From a virus: 64,000 bases of DNA. This document shows positions 10,472 to 29,675 of this stretch, in pieces. A model generated the notes under the pieces. It saw nothing but the letters and a program-made list of their open reading frames with translations, ran no database searches and was not told the origin of the DNA. The stretch covers positions 64,001 through 128,000 of IMG/VR virus record IMGVR_UViG_3300017605_000342; one strand, written 5' to 3'. The position numbers and the translations under genes were made by a program. Numbering within the stretch: the first letter of the stretch is position 1; every line of letters starts with the position of its first letter.

Positions 10472-10561
10472 GGAAGTATGGGAGAACCAGGCAATCCACT
10501 GCCCCGCTAAGGCAAGGTCGCCCCACCGGGCGTGCATGTTCGAATCGTGCTACTTCCGCCA
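10472..10561 (+). tRNA. tRNA-Ser(GCT)
   Basis: GGAAGTA/TACTTCC acceptor stem, G73, encoded CCA, long variable arm CGCCC/GGGCG, TTCGAAT T-loop, anticodon loop CCGCTAA. Confidence 0.9.
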
Positions 10562-10566
10562 CATAT

Positions 10567-10896
10567 ATGAAAATGTTCGAAGACGAATTTCCCTGCATGG
10601 GACTATCACCACGTAGCTGGTCAGAAACCTCAGATACGACTATAGCTGTAACTAACTACAAAAAACAACTACTAGAAAAACCATCAATGATTCCCTTTGC
10701 AAAATTTACTAGATCAAACGGCGCTACTATATACGTCAATGCTAACAACATAGCTTACCTAGTATCAGTAGGAGAGACTCAGGTACGACTTGTCTTCGTG
10801 GGCGGTCCAGAGCCTGCCAACGATACAGTTATCGTACAAGGAAGTATTAGCCAAGTTGCCGACAGCCTTAGGTCCATAGGAGAAAAACATGTGTAA
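10567..10896 (+). CDS. Small protein; the part from 10687 resembles FlbD/SwrD-like small beta proteins
   Basis: FTRSNGATIYVNANNIAYL...VIVQGSISQV pattern; start uncertain (10567 or 10687). Confidence 0.45.
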   Translation: MKMFEDEFPCMGLSPRSWSETSDTTIAVTNYKKQLLEKPSMIPFAKFTRSNGATIYVNANNIAYLVSVGETQVRLVFVGGPEPANDTVIVQGSISQVADSLRSIGEKHV

Positions 10897-11011
10897 ATGC
10901 GGCCACACTCTTCTAGAACATAATGAGTTATCACACATTCTTTCATGCCCAAGGCTGGGGTGTAGTCAGTGTTCCTGTGAAGAATACTCCCCAAAGGATA
11001 CTAATGAGTAA
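10889..11011 (+). CDS. 40-aa Cys/His zinc-binding microprotein (not in ORF track)
   Basis: Hand translation MCKCGHTLLEH...CPRLGCSQCSCEEY; AGGAG RBS. Confidence 0.55.
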   Translation: MCKCGHTLLEHNELSHILSCPRLGCSQCSCEEYSPKDTNE

Positions 11012-11228
11012 GTTCTTCTGGCAGTTTATGGGAGACTTTACAGATATCCTAGATAAAGCTTTTAACTTCACAAGCGAAGTCTTTACGACCGTGCTTCAAA
11101 TAATTGGCATAGCTGTGTTGGGTATTTGTGCCGCAGCAATGTTAGCTATACCATTTGCGTTATATTGTGTGTACAGAGGAATAAAATGGCTGTTCGTTGG
11201 ATCGGTGGCTGGTCAAAACCAAGATTAG
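11004..11228 (+). CDS. Small membrane protein
   Basis: AAGGA RBS, MSKFFWQF start, long hydrophobic stretch. Confidence 0.5.
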   Translation: MSKFFWQFMGDFTDILDKAFNFTSEVFTTVLQIIGIAVLGICAAAMLAIPFALYCVYRGIKWLFVGSVAGQNQD

Positions 11229-17019: not shown

Positions 17020-17226
17020 TTAAACCTTTCTTATCCAGTGGATTAGTACCGATGCACCGCAAACGATGGCCGATACTTTCAACGCAGTGCTTAATGCCAG
17101 TACGTCTGTAGCTATCACAGGCGACAACAACAACGCAACCCAGCCTGCCGCTAGGTAGACTAAACTACCTAGCAAGCAAGCCGCAACTGCCCAAGCTGCA
17201 AATTCTGTAGCGATCTTAATAATCAT
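17020..17226 (-). CDS. Small two-TM membrane protein
   Basis: Almost entirely hydrophobic 68 aa; ATGA overlap. Confidence 0.5.
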   Translation of the reverse strand: MIIKIATEFAAWAVAACLLGSLVYLAAGWVALLLSPVIATDVLALSTALKVSAIVCGASVLIHWIRKV

Positions 17227-18347
17227 CTTCCGTGCTTTTTTAAGAACTCCTTGGTGTACCTAGAATATTGATTTTCTGGTTTCTCTGATCTTATAGAACC
17301 AACATCTAAATTATACAGCCAAGTTTTCGGATGCCGCGCCGAAATGCCAAACATAGTCTGGGAAGCTTCGACCAGCGGATGTAGCTTCCACGCTAATCCC
17401 AACTCAGACTGTCCGCCCAAGCAGGAATTTACAATTAGCTTTTCTCTAATAATTGAATGGTGGAAGTGGCCGCACAAAATGATATCGAATGAATTACCCG
17501 TATCTTTAGAAAACTCTCGATAAATCTTTGAATCGAACATCGCCATAACAGCGTCTTCTAAAGATTCTAGGCGGTTCATCTTTGCATCGGTTCCATGCAT
17601 CAAGATGTACTTGTGCCCAAACTGCTTTACGGGAACAACGTACCCCGGATGTATTCTAATTGTAACACTTGGGTCATCTTCAAAATAATATGCCAACATC
17701 TCGAAGATCACATAATCCCACGTGTCGTATGCCATTCTCTTGGAAAATAGCTTTGCTGAAAATCTGCCGTGATTTCCAGCCAGACAATCTATCTCGATAG
17801 GGATACCCAGTTCCTTCAGGTCTAATATTGCCATGTGTAACAGTCGCGCCGTGAGGATGGCTGCCGAACTGTCATTCATGTCATTAGTAAGTTCAAGGTC
17901 TGAAACATGTGACCCTGAAATCATATCTCCCAAAATAGAAATCCAAATCTTGTCAAAGTTATACGCTGTACGGTGAAACCCAACAATCTGTTTAGTAGAC
18001 TTGACTATTTCCGCTATTCTATTTGCGGCAATCACACTATTAAACTTGTTAGCATTATTAGTTTCTTTATCTGATATAACTTCTGTTACGTGCCAGTCAC
18101 TCCATACTAGTGCTGCAACTTCAGAGTGTCCGAAAGCAAGGTCCTTCTCAACCTTGGTGGGGCTAACCACAAAAGGCTGCGACTTCTCCCGCTTAAGAAC
18201 ACCCGTAAGTTCGTCGATAACTTGCTCGAAGTCGAAACCGCCTCGCCTTAACAATTTCTTATTCAAGCTACGCAAATCGGCGTTTTCCGAAGTCAGGCGC
18301 TCCAACACTCGGAGGCGTTTTTCTTCGGCTGATAAAGGTTTGGTCAT
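17223..18347 (-). CDS. Metallophosphoesterase with N-terminal coiled coil
   Basis: SDWH, GDMISG, GNHGR, MHG, GHFH. Confidence 0.85.
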   Translation of the reverse strand: MTKPLSAEEKRLRVLERLTSENADLRSLNKKLLRRGGFDFEQVIDELTGVLKREKSQPFVVSPTKVEKDLAFGHSEVAALVWSDWHVTEVISDKETNNANKFNSVIAANRIAEIVKSTKQIVGFHRTAYNFDKIWISILGDMISGSHVSDLELTNDMNDSSAAILTARLLHMAILDLKELGIPIEIDCLAGNHGRFSAKLFSKRMAYDTWDYVIFEMLAYYFEDDPSVTIRIHPGYVVPVKQFGHKYILMHGTDAKMNRLESLEDAVMAMFDSKIYREFSKDTGNSFDIILCGHFHHSIIREKLIVNSCLGGQSELGLAWKLHPLVEASQTMFGISARHPKTWLYNLDVGSIRSEKPENQYSRYTKEFLKKHGR

Positions 18348-20124: not shown

Positions 20125-21306
20125 CTAGTTGTCATAAATCGTTACGCCTCTGCGTATATAGATGTTCTCCGTTCCAGGATTGTCAATCGTTATATAAGGG
20201 ATTAAATAAATGTCGGCGCTCATACTAGCTTTACCACTATTACCGATTTGATTATCCCTGATTACGCCACCTTGTGACGGGTTTAAACCACCAGTAGCAA
20301 TACCATAACCAGCGGCGGTTGCTTCTGGATTGTCCTCTCCAACACCAACAGTTCTTGTAGAGCTATATGGAGAATACTGTGTATCAGAACTTCTGTACGC
20401 TCTAATTCTATACGAGTAAATACCGCCGGTCACCACGTTAGTATCTGTAAAGGTTTGAACATCAGCCGCAGTAACAAATAAAGTTTCGAAAGTTCCACTG
20501 GACCCTATTTTACGTTCAATAATATAAGCGGTTTCTGTAGTTGCATTATCAACCCAAATCAATTTTACTTGCGGGTTACCCGACACAAACTCAGCCACGG
20601 CTGATGAGAAAGTCGGAGAAGTGAGATTTGACACCACCAAACTATCGGTGGTTATAGCACCGGAAGCTGCATAAGTAGACTCTCCGTATTGATTGACTGC
20701 TTTAACTCGGTACAAGTAAGAAACATCGTATGACAGCCCAGTATCAGAATATGAAACAGAATCTGCTGGCAGACTAGTTACTGTTCTCCACGTAGCATCA
20801 ACGTTGCTAGATCTCTGTAAAATGAAGTTACTCTCATTGTTAGAATTATCATTCCACAAAAGATCAATAGTGTTTGCAGTCGAGGCCCCAGTCAGGTTAG
20901 ACGGTGGCAACGGTGGTGCCGTATCAGTACCTGGATCTGGCACAGGATCGGGCGTAAAAGCTGGCAATGTAATTTCCGCAATATTAGAATAAGTACTATA
21001 TCCGCCAGCATGTTGATTTCTGACTCGGTATCTATAGACAGTGGAAGGGGTAAGCGTACGGTCATACCCATCCAAAAAATAAGCAAGTCCAGTGCTTGTC
21101 AAAACATACGGGTCCACAAGGTCCGTGGCAAACTCCGTAAAGCCACTACACGCAGCACCTGTACAGAACTCCAAACTGAAGAACACGCTGTTAGCCGTAG
21201 CTCCAGGTTCCCAGACTAAATAAACCACAAGTCTCTGACCAATAGTAAACTGTTTAACAGTGTAGCTTGCTTCTAAATTATTAGGTGGAAAATCTAATAT
21301 ACCCAT
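20125..21306 (-). CDS. Three-FN3-domain protein with beta-helix-like C-terminal segment
   Basis: WNDNSNNE, WVDNATTE, YRVKAVN/YRIRAY FN3 motifs; tail GVIRDNQIGNSG. Confidence 0.8.
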   Translation of the reverse strand: MGILDFPPNNLEASYTVKQFTIGQRLVVYLVWEPGATANSVFFSLEFCTGAACSGFTEFATDLVDPYVLTSTGLAYFLDGYDRTLTPSTVYRYRVRNQHAGGYSTYSNIAEITLPAFTPDPVPDPGTDTAPPLPPSNLTGASTANTIDLLWNDNSNNESNFILQRSSNVDATWRTVTSLPADSVSYSDTGLSYDVSYLYRVKAVNQYGESTYAASGAITTDSLVVSNLTSPTFSSAVAEFVSGNPQVKLIWVDNATTETAYIIERKIGSSGTFETLFVTAADVQTFTDTNVVTGGIYSYRIRAYRSSDTQYSPYSSTRTVGVGEDNPEATAAGYGIATGGLNPSQGGVIRDNQIGNSGKASMSADIYLIPYITIDNPGTENIYIRRGVTIYDN

Positions 21307-21311
21307 ATCAC

Positions 21312-23756
21312 TTAGTCAAATTGTAGAGGATAACCATGTCCATTATTTTTAATCTGATTATCACTAATAATGAAGTCTTTCAAACCATCAATCAAAATAC
21401 CGCTAGCTCCGTTACTGCAAACAACATTGTCTTGTATTGTGACACCCTCAGTAAGCGCTCCTTGTTGAGCCGCTCCCAAAATTCTAATACCATCAGAACC
21501 ATTACGACAGAATATGTTATCCGTGATTGTTAGACGTGCATCCAACCCCGCCGCTAAATCATAGATGTCTTGGTCAAAGGCCATGTCTTTTTCAACGAAC
21601 TCCATGCCATAGTCTGTGAACCAAACAGCGTTACCCATACCAGGTGTAACTAAATCGTCGAGGTTGCCGCACAAACCATCATCAGTTGGTAAAGTACCAA
21701 CAACAGTTCCGGGGATAGACGTTCCGTAGTTATTCGGTTCTGGAGAGGCACCAGTAATCTCCAAAAAGAATCTAGTAACAGCGACGTTTGTATCTGGAGG
21801 AAGTGCACCACAAGCTGCAAAGGCTCTTATTTCGGATGCTGTAAGAGCACGAGCAATCACTGCAACTCTTGCAATCTTACCGTTAAAGGCATGCTGTGGA
21901 GTCAAGCCGTACATGTTTATCCCGATACCACACGCAACTGAGCCGTTAGGTGCTATAGCATGACCACCACTTCTAGTACCAACCAGTTGCACGCTGCCTG
22001 GAGTAAACCCAGCATAAAAATCAGCAATAACAGGAGCACCAGAAAAAGTAATATTAATACAAACAAACAACGGCGTACCAGCCACCAAAAAGTTTGACGG
22101 TGCACCACCAGCAGTTGTAAGTGGAACCTTCAGAGAATAGTCTGTCCAGTTACCTGCCACTAGTGGCTCTGTTGACCAAAATAATTCTAGTTCATTTGAA
22201 GCAGTTATTCGCATAGAATAACCAGAGTCATATCTATTTCCAAGAATCGTCCCTAATACTCCTATACTGGCAGGTTCAATCCACGCGCACTGACAAGAAG
22301 GGTTATTGAATAGTCCCTGCCCAGTTAGTTTAATGTAGTTAGATACAGACCCATCCCACACCCTAGATAACCCAACATCCGCCGGCTCATCCGCTTCAGC
22401 ACCAGTTGCCCCAGTTAGGTCTGAAATATTGTTACCGTCAATAGTAACTTCAGTACTTGCCCAACATGCCGCACCTCTAAAGACACTGCAATTTTTACTG
22501 TAACAGCCAGTAACGTGCACACCGCGACACACATCCAAGTTAATCAAAGCTGTGTCTCTGTCGTTGCTGACGGCGTATTTCAGCGCGGTGTCAAATTTAA
22601 CGTTATCAAAGTTAACATAAGATGAAAAACCTATTTGAAACTTTTCACCAATTCCATGAGCAATTGTTAAATCTTTAACTGTAAGTTTACTTACTTTATA
22701 TGCCCGCAATGCCCACAAAGACTTGGCTTGCTTCGCCGCATCTTCTGTCTCGTCCTCTGTAAATTCTCCGTTAGTGTCATAGATACCTTCTAGGTCGATA
22801 GTACCTGTACCGTCAATGACAATATCATGATCACCAGAATCTATGTCTCCAACAAAAGAGTTTCGTGCTTCCAAAACAGTTATCTGTCCGTTAGGATAGT
22901 TCTGGATTGACGCAAATAATACCCGCAAAGTGCCGTTAACTCTAAAATGTACGCCACTGTCTATCCACAAACAAACCCCAACTGGTCCGTAATATGTTCC
23001 ATCACACAGATCGTCTTCAACAGGTGCAATATTGGCTATCACGCTACTTGGAACAAGAACGCGGGTTCTTCCCGATCCTGCTAAAACGTTTGCTCTCGCT
23101 TGATCCAGTGCTTGTTGGATTTTGGCGGTTTCATCACCAACTCCAGTAACTCCTAAATCTCGTACCACATCAATCCAGTCATCTGTAAAAGGAACAACAT
23201 CTGGGTCACTTTCACTAGGAAAAACAGACTGTGCAATAAACGTAGAAAATTCTCCGAGCGTGTTATAAAACAATGCGCCCAAAGGAATAGGCTCTATTAC
23301 AATAACCGCTTGTGGCACAACAATGGGTGGCGGCGTCGGTGTCGGTGGTATATCCGGTGGTGCAGGAGTGCTGTTTAACACCGTAACAGTTATAGTACTT
23401 GTTGTAAATGTATTACCAGCAAAGTCTGTAACTACCGCAGAAATTGTATGGGGGCCGTTAGTAGTTGTTGCTGTATTCCACGGCAACGAAAAGCTCGATG
23501 AAATCGAAGTTATAGGCCCACCAAGAGGAGCTGAATCTAGATAAAGTTGCACATTGGCCACTCCAACATCGTCGGTGGCAGTACACGTTACTGTAACACT
23601 GCCAGCTAGAGTAGCTCCGTTACTTGGTGCACTGATGGACCCAGTAGGCGCAGTAGTATCAGGAGTGCCACCGCCACCATACTCGTAGGCACCGATATCC
23701 CACGTTGACCCCTGAGGTCTTACAACTCCATCAAAATCTGTAGTAAATAAAGGCAT
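21312..23756 (-). CDS. Mosaic tailspike/adhesin: anchor peptide, Ig-like domain, beta-helix with inserted LamG-like domain
   Basis: DTTAPT..ISAP..G Ig domain; GDETAKIQQALD pectate-lyase-3-like start; I.DN.I..NG rungs; FNGKIARVAVIARALTASEI. Confidence 0.8.
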   Translation of the reverse strand: MPLFTTDFDGVVRPQGSTWDIGAYEYGGGGTPDTTAPTGSISAPSNGATLAGSVTVTCTATDDVGVANVQLYLDSAPLGGPITSISSSFSLPWNTATTTNGPHTISAVVTDFAGNTFTTSTITVTVLNSTPAPPDIPPTPTPPPIVVPQAVIVIEPIPLGALFYNTLGEFSTFIAQSVFPSESDPDVVPFTDDWIDVVRDLGVTGVGDETAKIQQALDQARANVLAGSGRTRVLVPSSVIANIAPVEDDLCDGTYYGPVGVCLWIDSGVHFRVNGTLRVLFASIQNYPNGQITVLEARNSFVGDIDSGDHDIVIDGTGTIDLEGIYDTNGEFTEDETEDAAKQAKSLWALRAYKVSKLTVKDLTIAHGIGEKFQIGFSSYVNFDNVKFDTALKYAVSNDRDTALINLDVCRGVHVTGCYSKNCSVFRGAACWASTEVTIDGNNISDLTGATGAEADEPADVGLSRVWDGSVSNYIKLTGQGLFNNPSCQCAWIEPASIGVLGTILGNRYDSGYSMRITASNELELFWSTEPLVAGNWTDYSLKVPLTTAGGAPSNFLVAGTPLFVCINITFSGAPVIADFYAGFTPGSVQLVGTRSGGHAIAPNGSVACGIGINMYGLTPQHAFNGKIARVAVIARALTASEIRAFAACGALPPDTNVAVTRFFLEITGASPEPNNYGTSIPGTVVGTLPTDDGLCGNLDDLVTPGMGNAVWFTDYGMEFVEKDMAFDQDIYDLAAGLDARLTITDNIFCRNGSDGIRILGAAQQGALTEGVTIQDNVVCSNGASGILIDGLKDFIISDNQIKNNGHGYPLQFD

Positions 23757-23759
23757 CTA

Positions 23760-24149
23760 TTACATCACTCTAAATGTACGATCACTAACATCAAACACAT
23801 CTGGATATTCTACACTACTTAGTTTAAGAATACATGTGCTAGATGATGGTCCTACTACCCACCAGTTTGCACTACCTGAGTTAAAAGTGTTAAATAGAAA
23901 CTGATAACTTGAACCATTATTTCTAGATAATTCAATCTTGATTGTAGAACTTTCTGGTAAGTTTGTAGAATTCCAGTAGAAACTTTTCCAACGTCCAGTC
24001 TTCAAACGTTCTCCACCATTTGGAGAAATAATAGAAATCGTAGGAGTTACAGGTTGCGGGTTATCGAAGATAAATTCTAACGCACCGATGTCCCAAGCAA
24101 CTCCCTGCGGCCTTAAAACACCATCGAAGTCTGTATTGAATAAAGGCAT
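23760..24149 (-). CDS. Anchor peptide plus single Ig-like (SPNGGE-type) domain
   Basis: ISIISPNGGE, IKIELSRNNG, DVSDRTF. Confidence 0.75.
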   Translation of the reverse strand: MPLFNTDFDGVLRPQGVAWDIGALEFIFDNPQPVTPTISIISPNGGERLKTGRWKSFYWNSTNLPESSTIKIELSRNNGSSYQFLFNTFNSGSANWWVVGPSSSTCILKLSSVEYPDVFDVSDRTFRVM

Positions 24150-24163
24150 AAGTTTTCCCTCCG

Positions 24164-25162
24164 TTAGTTAATCACAACCCCTTGGTCGATTGCGTTTGTG
24201 CTTGCGGCAGTCAGGTGGAAATCCCCACCAGCAGCGTTTACAAAGTGTGGGTCTGTGGTCAAGTTATTCGATAAAACCGTTCCTGATCCGTTGTTGGTAA
24301 TACCGCCACTTTGGTACACGATGTTGTTCTTTACCCTAGCTCCTGCACTATCTGCGTTCATGACTATTCCAGTAGGATTGTTGTAGATTGTGTTATTATA
24401 TATCATAGCGTTAGTCGGATTGTTCCAAGCTACTTCTATTCCGCGTGAATTGCCGTAGATCAAGTTGTTATAAACTAAAATGCTATCGCCAGAAGTTACG
24501 ACCACAGCAGCCGCATTACCTCCAGTGCCATTGCTATAGATCCTATTGTTCCTTATAATGTTTCCATCCGTCCGCTCACCATAGCCATTGTAAGTCTGTA
24601 CACCACAGCCAAAGTTAGAGTAGATCGTACATCCATCAACGATGTTGTGTTGACTGCCTAAGTAAAAGCCGTGATCTTGTGGGGTATTGCTTATAGTATT
24701 GTGCCCATTATGGTGTACGATGCAGTCGATAAACTCATTATAACCGTCAGCGGCGTGCGTGCAATGAACCCCTTGACGCTGAGCGTTCTTTATCTCACAC
24801 CCAATAACACGGATATGGTTCACACCACTGTTAATGGCAACAACTTCATCAGATGTGTTTTGACCATCCAGACTTAGGTTCTGAAAAATCACATACTTTA
24901 TATAAGAAGCCGTCATGTTCAGCACGCGCATATTGACTGTTTCTCCAGAATAGGCGGAAATCAGTGGTGCGTTGCTCCAAGACGTTCCGGTAGGAATTGT
25001 TTGAGAGTTGGCATCAATGCTCTCGTTATATGTGCCAGAGCGAATATAGAGCGTATCCCCAGCAACCATTACGCTGATGCCTTTGGCTATAGTTTGGAAA
25101 GGTGATCCGATAGTTCCTGGGTTACTATTATTACCTGTTGTTGCTACGTAGTATATTGCCAT
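24164..25162 (-). CDS. Right-handed beta-helix protein (DUF1565/pectate-lyase-like)
   Basis: YYVATTGNNSNPGT..PFQTI, GDTLYIRSGTY, repeated YNN.IY.N rungs, DPHFVNAAGGDFHL. Confidence 0.85.
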   Translation of the reverse strand: MAIYYVATTGNNSNPGTIGSPFQTIAKGISVMVAGDTLYIRSGTYNESIDANSQTIPTGTSWSNAPLISAYSGETVNMRVLNMTASYIKYVIFQNLSLDGQNTSDEVVAINSGVNHIRVIGCEIKNAQRQGVHCTHAADGYNEFIDCIVHHNGHNTISNTPQDHGFYLGSQHNIVDGCTIYSNFGCGVQTYNGYGERTDGNIIRNNRIYSNGTGGNAAAVVVTSGDSILVYNNLIYGNSRGIEVAWNNPTNAMIYNNTIYNNPTGIVMNADSAGARVKNNIVYQSGGITNNGSGTVLSNNLTTDPHFVNAAGGDFHLTAASTNAIDQGVVIN

Positions 25163-28100
25163 TATTCAGTTTCTCCTACGTTATCGTAAGTAAAATTTAG
25201 TCCTGGGCCATCCTCACTGGCACCTAGAACAATGTCTGAATGATTATAAAAACTCGTACCTACAAACGGAAGACACACTCTCAAGTTCAAATCTACTGTA
25301 TTGATGTTGTGTACTACCAAATTGTAATTAAGAATTGTTGCGGCTGAGACAGCAGCAGGCACTCTTGGAAGATCTACTACCGTAGCAAGAGGCTGCCAAT
25401 CTCCAGTCAACAAATAGTCTTGACGCGAGTAAAAACCATACGGCTGAATAGACTCTCCGGGGGCCGCGTCATCTTTGATGTTCAAACGAACATACAAACC
25501 GTCGTCTGCTGTAACATCAATAGCCCGTATCCAAATAAAGAAAACCGAAACGCCCTTTTGCATAGGAATTTCTGTTTCAAAATTGATAAACCCGCTGTCG
25601 AATATTGTTGCCCCACCTGGTAAAAAAACAGTGGCCCCTTCATACTGGAATCCATCGTTCGTTGGAGTAATGTTATAAGGTCCTGGGTTATCCACACCGA
25701 TTGGTATATACGGAGAAATAGCTGTGCCCACACCACGACTATCAGTGAAGACATTGGAACTCAACGATAGTAAGTTGTTGAATGTTGCAACTAGACCGTA
25801 TACATCACTACTTAGTAAAATTGTTCCGGCAGTAGTGATAGGTAAGTTAGCCTTAAACACTGGGTGTTTAATAGTACCGCCCTTTGCAACAATGCTAGAC
25901 GGGTTACCAGGAATTTCTGGGAATACAATACGGATTCCAGATGAGAACCTAGAATAATTTCCGGCTGCATCATACGCTCGAACAAAACAAATTGTTTCGC
26001 GGCGGCGGGCAATCTTAAATTCGGAGGCAGTTGTTTGTCCGTTTGTAATCGTGTCATAGACTAGGTAGTTGGTGTTGTTCGCATCTCCCCAACCTTGGTC
26101 TGCATACCTAAGCTCGAAGCCACCACCAACAGGTGGTGCTTGACCGATAGAAATTACGAAGTAGTTTGGGTCATCCTCGTCTACAGTAAGACCAGACACA
26201 AAAGTATCTGACGGTACAGAAGTCCATGCTTTTAGACGTAAGTCAACTAGAACATCTATAGCAGTCGCTGGCAACAACTCAGACGTACCACCATATGTCA
26301 GCGTTAGTGTAATTGAATTAAACAGCAATGACAGTGCATTCGTTGTTTCTATGATTTCAGCAAGATCGGCGGCGGTTGGTAACTCTGCCGTATCCGTTGG
26401 AGCAAATGGATTTGGTGGAACTTTCAGGCTAGCCAAGAATTTCTTAACTTGGTCGATCTTACCAAAAGTAACTGTGTGCTTAACAATGTCTTTTGATTTT
26501 GAATCAATCAAAGACTCTACTGAAGTAATAACTTCAGACTGAGACACAGGCAACCCAGCAGGCAAATTTGCAAACCTCAAAATAGTACCAGGACGAGGCA
26601 CACCCGTAAACTCTACAGTACTAAACTGCTCGTAGGTACCCGCATAGTGCTGGTATGAACCTTCGGCAACCAATGCAGCCGCTGCCATTTCGCACTCCAC
26701 AGATGTTCGTGGTAAAGGACTCAAATCTTTTTTGGTAATAGTACGCAACCCGTTGTCACCCCACACTGCTGCTTCTGATGTTATCAAATCAGCATTCTGG
26801 GCACGTCCTATGGCAATGCCGGCACGACGGTAGCGCAACCGCATGATTTGACCTGGTGTGGGTGTGTTGGCAGATAGCTTTGTACTGTCCTTAAAGAATG
26901 TTAGTGTTGCATCTCCTGCGTTATACAGGGTTGATCCTAGAATATTTCCAGAATCTATACGCCCTTGACGTGATGTAATAATGGTAGCAACAGGCCCCAT
27001 ACCATCGTAAGAATCTATTTCATTAGGTCCAACCTGTTTTGGCGTCCATGTTATAGAAGTAAAATCTTCTTCAATAGGAGCACCAGTACCAATATCAAAT
27101 TTGTTACGTTCAGGATACCACAGATCCTTGTCAACAGTTGACAATGACACTTGCATTGGCACACTGATTGTAATGTTTGATAGTGTTATATGCAAGTTGT
27201 TAGAAACTACAGGAACATACGCGGCAAAAAATTGTCCAGCACCTACTCCCGTGTTTGACCCCGCATGTGTCCAAATAGTTTGATTAGTTGTGGGCCTTCC
27301 GGTAGTTGCATCAATCTCTGTAATGATCGTTCTATATACCGGAATATCGGCAACAGTATTACCACCAAAACTACCCAAGGTTCCAGTGATAGTACGAAAC
27401 AGGTATTCCCTGTCGTGCCTGTTTATATTCTGAAAGGTTACTAGTGTGCGTAAAATGTATCTTTTGTTATCAGCTAACGTGCTGACCGTATAGGTATCCG
27501 ACTGCACTACCCCGTTAATGATTGGATGTAAGTCAGTGCCAACTACCTGAATACCAAACACACACCCCGCCATCGAAGAGCTTGGAGTACTTGTCCACAA
27601 TGACGCAATAATACCAGAACCACTATCTGTCACAAAGTCAAACTCTCCGTGAGTTAGACGTAAATTACCTTGCAAAGGAATCAATGCCTTAGATTGTAGG
27701 TACACTCCGTAAGCATCTGCCGCGTTGCCAATAATGTTTAGATACCCGTTGTCCACTCGGATAACGTTGTTAACGGAATCTACTTCAGTCCAAATGTTAC
27801 TATCAACTGCTGCCCCAGAAAAAATGTCATCTAACAACAAGGCACTGTCAACGCCATACACGGAAGAGGCCATCGGAAATGCATTAGTTAAACCGTCACC
27901 TACCCAAAATTCATTCATCAATCCTTGCGGTTCAACGTCTCCCAGCACAATGGCGTCATTAATAACTGGGTCTGTTATTGGACCGATAGACAAACGCCCC
28001 GGCGTGAAGTGTGGATTATGTTTACCTGCCCAGCCTGTGGCAGTACCTGTACCATTGCCCACAGAGTCTGTTAGCGTGAAATTGGACGCACCCACACTTT

Positions 28101-28860
28101 CAATAAACCAATTGCCAACGGCAGCGCTTTTAGTCCCATCAGCAAGTACGTGGTCAGATATGGAAATACAGTCTCCGTTGGCCCGTCCATGTGGTGTCAT
28201 TGTTGTCACAACAATTGGGGTACCACCAGTACTTGAAGCTATTCGCACACGACTACTCTGATCCGAATGCCCATTAATAATTAGTGTTGCGGGCGTTACG
28301 TCTTGTCGCTCGTAGTACAACTTAAAGTCATTTGTCCAGAAACGATAGTACGCGGCTGCTGCAAAGTCTTTGACAATCTGTCCAAAGGTTGTTGTAGGGT
28401 CAACGAAATAATAAGGTACCAACTGCCCGTCTTCGACAGCAGTAACATCAAACTTTCCCGGTGCAATACGGTTAGCCAAGTCTTTAATAATCGCGCCTTG
28501 TGTTTGGTTGATGTACACAGGCAGAATACCTAATGGAGCAAGATTCAAAATATAGCTATCGTCTGTTCCGGTAAAATGCCATGACCAGGTAGGTTGATCG
28601 GTAGGTGAATATTTCCCCACGTACTCTAACTGCGGCGCGTTTGTAACGAAGCCAGTCCAGTAAGTAGGATCTGAGTCAGTACCTAAAACAAAGTAACTAC
28701 CACGACGCGGTAGGACAAATCCACTACCCCACGCAGCCATATCCAAGTCAATCGTTGTAGGTTCGTTGACTGATTGCTTTATGACAGGTGACCCTGTTAA
28801 ATATTTGATGTAATCAATACCGGCCAACGTGGGGTCGGTAGAAGTTAATGTTAGTACCAT
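25162..28860 (-). CDS. Large tail tip/hub protein with C-terminal FN3-like domains
   Basis: 1232 aa, downstream of tape measure; QGAIIKDLANRI hub-like helix; VRAYDAAGNYS. Confidence 0.75.
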   Translation of the reverse strand: MVLTLTSTDPTLAGIDYIKYLTGSPVIKQSVNEPTTIDLDMAAWGSGFVLPRRGSYFVLGTDSDPTYWTGFVTNAPQLEYVGKYSPTDQPTWSWHFTGTDDSYILNLAPLGILPVYINQTQGAIIKDLANRIAPGKFDVTAVEDGQLVPYYFVDPTTTFGQIVKDFAAAAYYRFWTNDFKLYYERQDVTPATLIINGHSDQSSRVRIASSTGGTPIVVTTMTPHGRANGDCISISDHVLADGTKSAAVGNWFIESVGASNFTLTDSVGNGTGTATGWAGKHNPHFTPGRLSIGPITDPVINDAIVLGDVEPQGLMNEFWVGDGLTNAFPMASSVYGVDSALLLDDIFSGAAVDSNIWTEVDSVNNVIRVDNGYLNIIGNAADAYGVYLQSKALIPLQGNLRLTHGEFDFVTDSGSGIIASLWTSTPSSSMAGCVFGIQVVGTDLHPIINGVVQSDTYTVSTLADNKRYILRTLVTFQNINRHDREYLFRTITGTLGSFGGNTVADIPVYRTIITEIDATTGRPTTNQTIWTHAGSNTGVGAGQFFAAYVPVVSNNLHITLSNITISVPMQVSLSTVDKDLWYPERNKFDIGTGAPIEEDFTSITWTPKQVGPNEIDSYDGMGPVATIITSRQGRIDSGNILGSTLYNAGDATLTFFKDSTKLSANTPTPGQIMRLRYRRAGIAIGRAQNADLITSEAAVWGDNGLRTITKKDLSPLPRTSVECEMAAAALVAEGSYQHYAGTYEQFSTVEFTGVPRPGTILRFANLPAGLPVSQSEVITSVESLIDSKSKDIVKHTVTFGKIDQVKKFLASLKVPPNPFAPTDTAELPTAADLAEIIETTNALSLLFNSITLTLTYGGTSELLPATAIDVLVDLRLKAWTSVPSDTFVSGLTVDEDDPNYFVISIGQAPPVGGGFELRYADQGWGDANNTNYLVYDTITNGQTTASEFKIARRRETICFVRAYDAAGNYSRFSSGIRIVFPEIPGNPSSIVAKGGTIKHPVFKANLPITTAGTILLSSDVYGLVATFNNLLSLSSNVFTDSRGVGTAISPYIPIGVDNPGPYNITPTNDGFQYEGATVFLPGGATIFDSGFINFETEIPMQKGVSVFFIWIRAIDVTADDGLYVRLNIKDDAAPGESIQPYGFYSRQDYLLTGDWQPLATVVDLPRVPAAVSAATILNYNLVVHNINTVDLNLRVCLPFVGTSFYNHSDIVLGASEDGPGLNFTYDNVGETE

Positions 28861-29675
28861 TACTTATACGTATATCTTGTAGGTAAATTAAAGACTCTAG
28901 GTTTAAAATTTAAACCATACTTATTCTGCCACTCCCACACTGCACTGACGTGGCGATAAACTTTGTAAAATTCATCGATCTCTCCACGAGAGATGTAGTG
29001 TGTTGCAAACCCTTCAATGCCCTTGCGGTTTTGTGATCCAGTGTGCAAGACTAGCGCACCAACCAAGTCCTTGTACAATCCCATTTCTTCCAGCATTTTT
29101 ACATACGCCGACATCTGCAAAAACGCCGTGTCAGATACGGACTTACCAGACTTAATGTCTACAACGTACAAACCTTCAGGTAAGCTTAGTGGTTTACTGC
29201 CGTTGACTTCGTAAGTACCACTCTTAATACTCACCACTCCGTCAGTAGTACCAGCTTCTCGGTACTTCAGGGAATAAACCATACGCTCGGATTCTAGAAT
29301 AGTAGGTTTTACAACCTTCACAAACTGCACCAGTCTCCAGAATGCTAGCGCCTCGTCTTGGTCTTCTATGAAATATCTAGGCTTGGTGTCTACGACATTT
29401 GGTTCGTTATCATACTGCCCGTCTAGGTTAACAAAGACCTCGCCACCTTTGACGTATGTTTCAAACGCTTTGTGTATACTTGACCCCTTTTGCTGAGACT
29501 CTTTCAGGCGTTTGTCAGCCAACTCGTTACCAATATCACCGCGCCATTTGGCAAGATACGGTGCACCAACAGCGGATAATTTGGTTGTAACTGAGGGTAA
29601 GTAAACCTGACCTTCGCTATCTAAATCAATACGGTAGTAATGCTCGTTATACCATGAAACTTGTTTTACAGTCAA
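28860..29675 (-). CDS. PD-(D/E)xK exonuclease (Cas4/RecB-like phage nuclease)
   Basis: LPSVTTKL, GSSIH, AGTTD, VDIKSG, QMSAY. Confidence 0.85.
   Translation of the reverse strand: MTVKQVSWYNEHYYRIDLDSEGQVYLPSVTTKLSAVGAPYLAKWRGDIGNELADKRLKESQQKGSSIHKAFETYVKGGEVFVNLDGQYDNEPNVVDTKPRYFIEDQDEALAFWRLVQFVKVVKPTILESERMVYSLKYREAGTTDGVVSIKSGTYEVNGSKPLSLPEGLYVVDIKSGKSVSDTAFLQMSAYVKMLEEMGLYKDLVGALVLHTGSQNRKGIEGFATHYISRGEIDEFYKVYRHVSAVWEWQNKYGLNFKPRVFNLPTRYTYK

Follow-up and report, generated by a model that had tools for sequence, protein, structure and literature searches.

A choice-of-anchor-Q motif divided among neighbouring tail genes of a phage suggests a split-domain joint

Within the DNA analysed here (the window: 64,000 nt, positions 64,001 to 128,000 of virus record IMGVR_UViG_3300017605_000342), a beta-helix gene ends on the first half of a choice-of-anchor-Q (CAQ) motif, and each of the next two genes begins with the second half. 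Why would a phage keep one motif in pieces on separate polypeptides, and might the pieces come together again? A sequence-only reading of the window proposed a natural plug and socket, by which one enzyme could dock on either a small Ig protein or a large adhesin. Here, the truncated helix is referred to as the socket and the 26-residue second halves as plugs.

One motif on three polypeptides

The three genes (P0001, P0002, and P0003) and their neighbours all lie on the minus strand and have the following features:

25162..28860, minus strand: P0005, 1232-aa tail protein without known family (no Pfam, NCBIfam, or PHROG match)
24164..25162, minus strand: P0001, 332-aa PL9-like right-handed beta-helix (socket), truncated inside CAQ (PF13229, PF22842)
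24167..24253, minus strand: first half of the CAQ motif, DPHFVNAAGGDFHLTAASTNAIDQGVVIN, socket end of P0001
24150..24163, minus strand: junction 1 spacer, CGGAGGGAAAACTT, 14 nt, with Shine-Dalgarno GGAGG
23760..24149, minus strand: P0002, 129 aa, plug 1 and a small domain, as a lead probably Ig-like of the Kre9/KNH type
24072..24149, minus strand: plug 1, second CAQ half, MPLFNTDFDGVLRPQGVAWDIGALEF, start of P0002 (NF041518)
23757..23762, minus strand: junction 2, TAA TAG immediately 5' of the P0003 ATG
21312..23756, minus strand: P0003, 814 aa
23679..23756, minus strand: plug 2, second CAQ half, MPLFTTDFDGVVRPQGSTWDIGAYEY, start of P0003 (NF041518)
23436..23648, minus strand: Big_7 Ig domain of P0003, aa 37-107, unbroken (PF17957)
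23508..23525, minus strand: LGGPIT, P0003 aa 78-83, the site (S2) where relatives cut the Ig
20125..21306, minus strand: P0004, 393 aa with fn3 repeats, next tail gene in the same block

The C-terminus of P0001, ...DPHFVNAAGGDFHLTAASTNAIDQGVVIN, is followed directly by TAA, and junction 1 reads AAC TAA CGGAGGGAAAACTT ATG, with the P0002 start out of frame with P0001, in agreement with the sequence-only reading. Junction 2 reads ATG TAA TAG ATG and is bridged without indels by contigs from soil runs X1, X2, and X5, while the P0005 stop overlaps the P0001 start (TAATG). The three proteins P0001, P0002, and P0003 belong to a tail-fibre module and are made as separate polypeptides with coupled translation. 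A promoter and terminator scan found nothing beyond chance at the junctions, and no RNA sequencing run is listed as containing the stretch. DNA coverage of the window comes from low-share soil, rhizosphere, and freshwater contigs, with parts of the stretch lacking cover. The source phage is described as a soil phage.

The CAQ profile (NCBIfam NF041518, choice_anch_Q; 58 positions, 25-bit cut-off) matches residues 5-26 of P0002 over profile positions 36-57 (24.0 bits, E 3.5e-5) and residues 4-26 of P0003 over positions 35-57 (29.8 bits, E 5.4e-7, above the cut-off), so the resemblance of the plugs to CAQ exceeds chance. P0001 gave no match to this profile, either at full length or as residues 290-332 alone, and the whole profile is matched within no single one of the three polypeptides. 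Joining the last 31 aa of P0001 to a plug lengthens the match to positions 17-57 and brings the score to 35.9 bits with the P0002 plug and 42.9 bits with the P0003 plug. Sequence and profile matches bear out in full the earlier observation of a CAQ-like motif split across genes with its second half on two partners, and the suggested comparison of separate with fused sequences favours the fused.

Bacterial beta-helix proteins carry the same sequence motif at their C-terminus, where it forms one continuous stretch rather than being divided between genes. Continuity had been claimed as the normal state, and in 73 of 74 metagenomic occurrences the second-half pattern follows the first half in the same ORF; most of 468 homologues are likewise about 400-420 aa long with the motif unbroken. 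The sole non-continuous metagenomic case (L028) does not represent this design, being a bacterial gene with a frameshift that lies next to RHS genes. A search of metagenome contigs for the pattern at a protein start returned 0 matches. Within the complete virus record (160,874 bp) the first half occurs once and the second half twice, with no further copies.

The two plugs share 20 of 26 residues, and 10 of these 20 identical codons differ synonymously, figures that a script recomputed exactly as first given. At the DNA level they match at 58 of 78 nt, the longest exact run being 11 nt. Across the eight plugs compared, mean pS is 0.75 versus a mean pN of 0.13, and plug 1 shows a dN/dS of about 0.05-0.15 against the other plugs. 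Judged by these substitution patterns, the plugs are under strong purifying selection, as had been proposed for both peptides.

The same cut and other cuts in relatives

The cut inside CAQ (S1) is common to the window and four other phage contigs, which carry one or two truncated helices and one to three plug-first proteins. In L007, the 329-aa helix ends in AIDQGVVIN and is followed by three plug-first proteins (1031, 129, and 83 aa). L002 likewise has one helix, of 332 aa, before three plug-first proteins (1046, 133, and 566 aa), and L082 has two helices of 340 aa each before a single plug-first protein of 1031 aa. A soil strain contig also spans the junction. The L007, L002, and L082 helices are 34-67% identical to P0001 and come from independent assemblies of different samples. 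The last 19 aa of P0001 are identical (19/19) to those of both L082 helices, the bodies of which are 34-38% identical, and the DNA coding for these residues matches at 42-44 of 57 nt. Purifying selection thus acts on the socket end as well as on the plugs. Homologues of P0005 lie 5' of the helix gene(s) in L002, L003, and L007, and homologues of P0004 lie 3' of the P0003 homologue in L002, L003, L005, and L007. Searches of viral contigs found no P0001-related loci; among phage records, megablast of 9 kb gave no match and tblastn with P0001 only two weak N-terminal matches.

The window is a single metagenome-assembled record with low depth in other runs, and its divided motif could in principle have arisen by a recent lesion or by misassembly of one contig. 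However, the same cut appears in the independent assemblies L007, L002, and L082, and a second type of cut (S2, below) is identical in ENA and JGI assemblies (L003/L004 and L005/L006), making such an artefact extremely unlikely. The sequence-only reading had named a recent, unique lesion as the finding that would count against it; relatives reveal the opposite, a cut conserved in five phages.

The linker region proposed to serve as a joint across this phage group runs from the helix through CAQ and a Gly/Pro linker to a Big_7 Ig domain, and it is cut at three sites: after DPxFV (S0), inside CAQ (S1, as in the window), and inside the Big_7 Ig (S2). In L003 and L005, the two helices extend past a complete CAQ into Big_7, where they end after profile positions 1-45, and the P0002 and P0003 orthologues begin with the remainder of Big_7. 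In P0003 of the window, plug 2 leads through a Gly/Pro linker into a complete Big_7 Ig, followed by a large body that contains a LamG-like insert and, at the C-terminus, by a beta-helix. Its Ig (aa 37-107) matches PF17957 over profile positions 1-70 of 70 (55.7 bits), and at site S2 the window has GGTGGG versus the Shine-Dalgarno GGAGG of split relatives. In L080 and L081 the cut follows DPxFV, and the CAQ remainder forms the C-terminus of an upstream fn3 protein. L007 carries both the S1 and S2 cuts, and its 83-aa protein is an adaptor that combines a plug end with a socket end; used as a protein query, this adaptor draws matches dominated by tandem Big_7 adhesins. L010 and L011 encode the helix, CAQ, and a P0002-like domain fused in one protein. 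Matching halves lie in the same locus throughout, with plug type equal to socket type, and socket-to-plug numbers range from 2:1 to 1:3 among loci (1:2 in the window). The sequence-only reading had recognized the S1 cut but missed the S0 and S2 sites and the duplication of sockets.

Programmed recoding, whether by frameshift, readthrough, or ribosome hopping, would fuse P0001 to the next gene, and in L002 and L082 the plug gene does lie in frame behind a TAG stop. Yet the socket-to-plug spacers measure 14, 14, 12, 9, and (strain contig) 13 nt, with frame offsets of 2, 2, 0, 0, and 1; the plug gene can thus occupy any of the three frames, and recoding is in effect excluded on this ground. Moreover, the stops vary between TAA and TAG, each plug gene is equipped with an ATG and a Shine-Dalgarno of its own, no slippery site is present, and the RNA structure z-score at the junction 1 spacer is 0.01. 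The socket, socket, plug, plug arrangement of L003 and L005 places another gene between matching halves, and L080 and L081 encode the completing half upstream. We consider recoding very improbable.

The conserved gene starts could also be boundaries of module exchange, serving as recombination linkers by which phages exchange tail cassettes, with the half domains as tolerated by-products that do not interact. Plug-first cassettes accumulate in tandem, two to three per locus, and other modules move as well, such as the LamG-like insert, which P0003 has in the window and the homologues of P0005 and P0004 have in L002. Nevertheless, with synonymous sites between plugs saturated and plugs 1 and 2 sharing no exact run beyond 11 nt, identity is too low for homologous recombination, and selection acts on the peptide. 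In addition, half of a 3+3-strand Ig sandwich or half of an enzyme cap should not fold alone. Module exchange may account for the spread of cassettes but not for the retention of halves, and as a full explanation it seems quite unlikely.

A proposed split-domain joint

P0001 matches PF13229 at 59.6 bits (cut-off 25.9) and falls just below the cut-off of the Pel9A-like family PF22842 (23.5 versus 25.2 bits); by sequence, its match to the PDB is confined to the N-terminal cap region. P0001 is a putative polysaccharide lyase or depolymerase of PL9-like type. The fold match to PL9 enzymes uses a predicted model of the L002 orthologue rather than of P0001 itself: the AlphaFold2 model of the natural L002 read-through (helix plus plug), with a mean pLDDT of 91.6, aligns with Pel9A (1ru4) over model residues 1-364, through the plug (Z 37.6, rmsd 1.9, 324 aligned), and with the RG lyase 5olr over model residues 2-362 (Z 34.7). 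In solved PL9 lyases the plug region belongs to a single-chain fold, and in the predicted model it is structurally equivalent to the end of these enzymes. The confident placement of the plug (residues at pLDDT 90-93) is expected from fused homologues in the alignment and thus is not independent evidence for docking in trans. For the natural L080 read-through (P0285; fn3 and CAQ rest before the helix), with an alignment two sequences deep, the N-terminal 133 residues have a pLDDT of 25-54, and this model carries no weight for or against the proposal.

P0001 lacks the last piece of its fold and its neighbours start with that piece, so the proteins would most likely clip together by rebuilding the fold. 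We propose that the C-terminal cap (the CAQ motif) of a PL9-like enzyme was cut in a loop and the missing ~26 residues placed at the N-termini of P0002 and P0003. After translation, a plug would insert into the unfinished helix end and rebuild the cap without a covalent bond, tying the enzyme to either plug-bearing payload, small and Ig-like (P0002) or large (P0003). On the comparative evidence, all of which fits a plug and socket, non-covalent split-domain complementation of this kind probably joins these modular tail proteins. The plug may thereby dock physically on P0001, the two plugs may be used alternatively or competitively, and the complex may be present in the virion. The unequal socket and plug counts would mean either that P0001 is in excess, that plugs compete, or that one plug has another partner.

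The idea of a plug and socket is strengthened by the conserved cut, the selection, the fused forms, the matched types, and the lack of recoding, but the identities first given to the partners fared less well. For P0002, Ig protein is no more than a lead (atlas score 0.87 for a Kre9/KNH-like domain); its body is 50% identical to the C-terminal domain of a 240-aa protein of L005. The label of adhesin for P0003 is tentative.

The plug could instead be a shared N-terminal docking peptide for another tail protein, for example P0005, with its CAQ resemblance merely historical. Plugs outnumber sockets in the window, L002, and L007; the contig of a P0002 homologue (P0127), 2,970 bp long, shows no socket; and there are known cases of conserved N-terminal peptides docking on a different domain, as with KP32 gp38 on the gp37 branching domain. 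This explanation is nonetheless unlikely: the halves sum to one HMM domain and one structural unit of PL9 enzymes, the partner ends change to match where the cut has moved to the Ig or to DPxFV, and the socket end is conserved far beyond the helix body, which goes unexplained if nothing binds there.

Returning to split-domain complementation, we see an even chance that this phage group possesses a general, evolvable joint, with a migrating cut, independently multiplying sockets and plugs, many-to-many assemblies, and chaining adaptors. Should the halves reassemble, a simple rule would underlie the way in which large phages construct and rearrange their multi-protein organs of host recognition, as any payload starting with the 26-residue peptide could hang on the enzyme and the joint could be moved or chained. 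Such a joint would be a naturally occurring set of non-covalent tags and catchers by which modules for host recognition could be swapped, with potential as short tags for cargo on a stable beta-helix or Ig scaffold. For annotators, there would be reason not to label such genes truncated or frameshifted, and partners would become predictable from sequence alone. The fused, S0, S1, and S2 versions of the same proteins also form a ready experimental set on the evolution of protein fission.

Comparison with known systems

By Rosetta-stone logic, separate proteins with fused homologues are expected to interact, and in engineered split tags (SpyTag/SpyCatcher, split GFP) a small domain is split into a tag and a catcher that form a docking pair. 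Unlike these, the cut here is natural, lies inside a domain rather than between domains, occurs at several sites in one lineage, and would leave a joint that is non-covalent as far as can be told. Chaperone-usher pili (Fim, Pap) assemble by donor-strand complementation, with a periplasmic chaperone and an outer-membrane usher driving strand exchange. The joint proposed here would be assembled in the cytoplasm, with neither chaperone nor usher, and would not form a homopolymer; in place of a single strand, it would donate three strands (S2) or, at S1, some 26 irregular residues. Pfam, NCBIfam, and PHROG scans of the tail-module proteins returned no chaperone or usher families.

In the branched receptor-binding complexes of Klebsiella podophages such as KP32, a secondary tail protein is attached to another tail protein by a short conserved N-terminal peptide that can be moved to other payloads (PMC13352976, PMC6872550); the docking of the gp38 peptide on gp37 was confirmed by ITC (PMC13352976). 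A conserved N-terminal peptide is likewise present on P0002 and P0003. However, the target of the KP32 peptide is an intact T4gp10-like branching domain, whereas the peptide here is the missing part of its partner's own fold, continuous with that fold in hundreds of homologues. Sequence scans of P0001 and P0005 with Pfam, NCBIfam, and PHROG list no T4gp10-like branching domain.

The principle has one structural precedent, by analogy, in the baseplate tripod of Lactococcus phage Tuc2009, where a C-terminal beta-hairpin of BppU completes the beta-sandwich of BppA domain 2 and the composite Ig-like domain was seen in a crystal structure (PMC4742702). Two tail proteins are joined there via one composite Ig-like domain, the logic of the S2 cut and, by extension, of S1. 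The Tuc2009 hairpin is a 25-residue addition to one partner, whereas here a PL9-like cap (S1) or a 3+3-strand Ig (S2) is itself cut, one and the same plug occurs on two to three distinct proteins, duplicated sockets exist, and close relatives are cut at different sites.

Two halves of one motif in neighbouring genes

The window covers bases 64001-128000 of an IMG/VR virus record (160,874 bp, completeness estimate 77%) and carries a co-oriented block of minus-strand genes; no close record for the window was found in the phage collection. In order, the block comprises:

2467-aa protein
Two small genes
P0005, 1232-aa tail protein
24164-25162, minus: P0001, 332-aa PL9-like beta-helix
23760-24149, minus: P0002, 129 aa
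21312-23756, minus: P0003, 814 aa
P0004, 393-aa fn3 protein

PHROG matches are weak but point to a block of tail genes: tail spike proteins for the P0003 C-terminal helix, and central tail fibre J for the fn3 repeats in P0004. Two exonuclease-family genes lie in or beside the tail module (28860-29675 and 17223-18347; phrog_298, E 5e-31, and phrog_284, E 4e-36), the first of which is located between P0005, to which it is coupled, and the 2467-aa protein. P0003 breaks off after a pair of helix rungs (...NNGHGYPLQFD; 21312-21480) and rung-like repeats occur at the end of P0004 (GVIRDNQIGNSG...IDNPGTENIYIRRGVTIYDN; 20125-20330), both features being kept in contigs L002, L003, L005, and L007.

The sequence-only reading described a choice-of-anchor-Q (CAQ) motif divided between P0001 and its two neighbours, and all of that description is present in the sequence. 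P0001 ends in ...DPHFVNAAGGDFHLTAASTNAIDQGVVIN followed by TAA, a 14-nt spacer (CGGAGGGAAAACTT) containing GGAGG leads to an out-of-frame ATG, and P0002 begins with MPLFNTDFDGVLRPQGVAWDIGALEF. The stop of P0002 (TAA TAG) is then followed by the P0003 N-terminus, MPLFTTDFDGVVRPQGSTWDIGAYEY. We refer to the truncated helix as the socket and to the N-terminal missing half as the plug. As had been noted, the two N-terminal 26-mers share 20 of 26 residues, with synonymous differences in 10 of the 20 codons for shared residues; at the DNA level 58 of 78 nt are identical, and the longest exact run is 11 nt. The whole 160-kb record holds a single first half and two second halves.

The NCBIfam CAQ model (58 positions) did not match P0001 alone, and on the separate plug proteins it matched only positions 35/36-57 (29.8 bits for the P0003 N-terminus, 24.0 bits for that of P0002). 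Fusing the last 31 residues of P0001 to a plug, the comparison that the earlier reading had proposed, extended the match to positions 17-57 and raised the score to 42.9 bits (P0003) and 35.9 bits (P0002). The socket end and the plugs belong to one domain.

Elsewhere the motif is normally continuous, as had been claimed: in a pattern scan of metagenomic sequences the second half followed the first within the same ORF in 73 of 74 occurrences, usually ending a few residues before the stop. The sole exception, L028 (3985-4820), is a bacterial beta-helix gene beside RHS-repeat genes; its CAQ second half lies in a different frame from the helix, and the gene is probably frameshifted or misassembled rather than an instance of the phage design. 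Three viral contigs have the continuous motif. A search of 5.8 billion proteins returned 468 homologues of P0001, most of them 400-420 aa long with an unbroken motif, and contigs L010 and L011 encode helix, CAQ, and a P0002-like domain in one protein, the fused counterpart of P0001 plus P0002.

Because the junction in the related contig L002 is in frame behind a TAG, a natural read-through protein (P0129: helix, five linker residues, plug, and Big_7 domain) could be folded. The predicted model has a mean pLDDT of 91.6, with 63 for the artificial linker and 90-93 for plug residues, the latter being expected from fused homologues in the alignment and thus not proof of docking in trans. More telling is the comparison with solved PL9 structures: the pectate lyase Pel9A (1ru4) matches model residues 1-364, i.e. 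through the plug (Z 37.6, rmsd 1.9 Å), and a PL9 rhamnogalacturonan lyase (5olr) matches residues 2-362. The plug in the predicted model therefore corresponds to the end of a single-chain catalytic fold. Invariant plug residues are L3, F4, D7, F/Y8, D9, R13, G16, W19, D20, I21, G22, A23, and E25; several are aromatic and would be exposed if uncovered.

Conservation of the cut inside CAQ

If the split were a recent, unique lesion, relatives should lack it; instead, the same cut (S1) is kept in three other contigs:

L007 (124-kb IMG/VR contig, closest relative, ~67% identity): 329-aa helix ending ...AASTNAIDQGVVIN, TAG, 14-nt spacer; plug-first proteins of 1031, 129, and 83 aa
L002 (25-kb Logan contig): 332-aa helix ending ...AIDNGVTIN; plug-first proteins of 1046, 133, and 566 aa
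L082 (31-kb contig, another sample): two 340-aa helix paralogues, then a plug-first 1031-aa protein

In both L082 helices the C-terminal 19 residues equal those of P0001, with only 42-44 of the 57 coding bases matching and the remainder of the proteins 34-38% identical. For a set of eight plugs, pS averages 0.75 and pN 0.13. Independent, low-depth contigs from soil runs span both window junctions, and their differences fall mostly at third codon positions. A fourth P0002 homologue, the plug-first P0127 (127 aa; L008:167-550), comes from a 2,970-bp contig that otherwise shows small unrelated genes and no helix gene.

Recoding across the junction, which would produce a fused protein, was also considered and is rejected. 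Socket-to-plug spacers measure 14, 14, 12, and 9 nt, with 13 nt in one strain contig (depth ~2), and therefore every possible frame relation between helix and plug gene occurs. The stop codon varies between TAA and TAG, all plug genes come with an ATG and a Shine-Dalgarno sequence of their own, and junction RNA folds no better than shuffled sequences (z 0.01). The 13-nt spacer reflects the loss of one base at window position 24157 (run X2), a strain variant or an error that alters the frame relation and touches neither gene.

Other cut sites and partial modules

Two further cut sites were found. The first, S2, lies inside the Big_7 Ig domain, between three strands on either side in the P0129 model. 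It occurs in L003/L004 and L005/L006 (the same phages in ENA and JGI assemblies), where the P0005 homologue is succeeded by two paralogous helix proteins of 407-421 aa. These have full CAQ, a GGGTPDTT linker, and Big_7 profile positions 1-45, ending ...VQFYLDGSPLGGP(I/V)T-TAATG, and the next two genes open with what remains of the Ig domain (e.g., MSDYTKTWDTTSVVNGPHTIGVV... and MATFSRSWNTLASANSAHTIHAVV...). The two plug genes correspond by orthology to P0002 and P0003: the L003 487-aa protein matches P0003 residues 87-814 from its residue 2 onward (51-57% identity), and the L005 240-aa protein matches the P0002 body at its end (50%). Gene order is socket, socket, plug, plug, so another gene lies between matching halves.

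L007 carries both S1 and S2 cuts. Its 83-aa ORF consists of the S1 plug, linker, and first half of Big_7, and after TAG-T-ATG a 729-aa protein opens with the second half; in the window these pieces are a single gene, P0003. The S2 site reads GGTGGG in the unsplit window gene (23517-23522) versus GGAGG in split forms, in which the Gly-Gly codons thus also supply the Shine-Dalgarno sequence of the following gene, ~10 nt ahead of the stop-start overlap TAATG, at:

L003:11205-11226
L003:12452-12473
L005:1253-1274
L005:2494-2515

The other site, S0, lies after DPxFV. L080 and L081 encode helices of 310 and 324 aa whose C-termini read ...NPLFVNP or ...DPLFVSVA, and the gene upstream (133/134 aa) encodes an fn3 domain with the rest of the motif at its end (DFHLQSGSPA...DLDGRQRP...IGAFEG). 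P0006, the closest P0001 homologue (71% identity), shares this end point, as does P0028. Wherever such a locus was seen, the completing piece is of the type that matches the unfinished end.

A LamG-like module (...SNYIKLTGQGLF..SCQCAWIEP..GTILGNRYDSGYSMRITASNELELFW...) lies inside P0003 (window 21700-22400, residues ~460-650) and inside its L007 counterpart. In L002 it is found within the P0005 and P0004 homologues (L002:2-700 and 10500-11200) and is missing from the 566-aa P0003 homologue; the domain seems to hop whole between neighbouring tail genes. A gene of 340-345 aa, absent from the window, was found at:

L002:6419-7441
L007:17860-18882
L082:13096-14133

Its start resembles the beta-helix enzymes' N-terminal cap (M.TFYVSK.G...GDILYVLAGTY), without helix rungs, and is followed by a Big_7 domain and a small domain similar to P0002. 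Its product may be another partial fold.

A probable docking joint and known systems

The split CAQ arrangement is real and conserved, and it is most likely a docking joint. The preferred explanation is non-covalent split-domain complementation, in which P0002 or P0003 would complete P0001 and thereby be tied to it. We infer docking, stoichiometry, competition, and virion location of the three proteins alike. Socket-to-plug ratios are 2:1 in L082, 1:2 in the window, and 1:3 in L002 and L007, and this variation suggests interchangeable parts.

In the literature we came across no report of a CAQ motif or PL9 cap being split, of one lineage using alternative cut sites, or of adaptors that are double-ended. 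Known phage assemblies offer two comparisons. A crystal structure of Tuc2009 BppU-BppA reveals one composite Ig-like domain common to two baseplate proteins (PMC4742702), and in Klebsiella podophages a second tailspike is attached via a conserved N-terminal peptide (PMC13352976).
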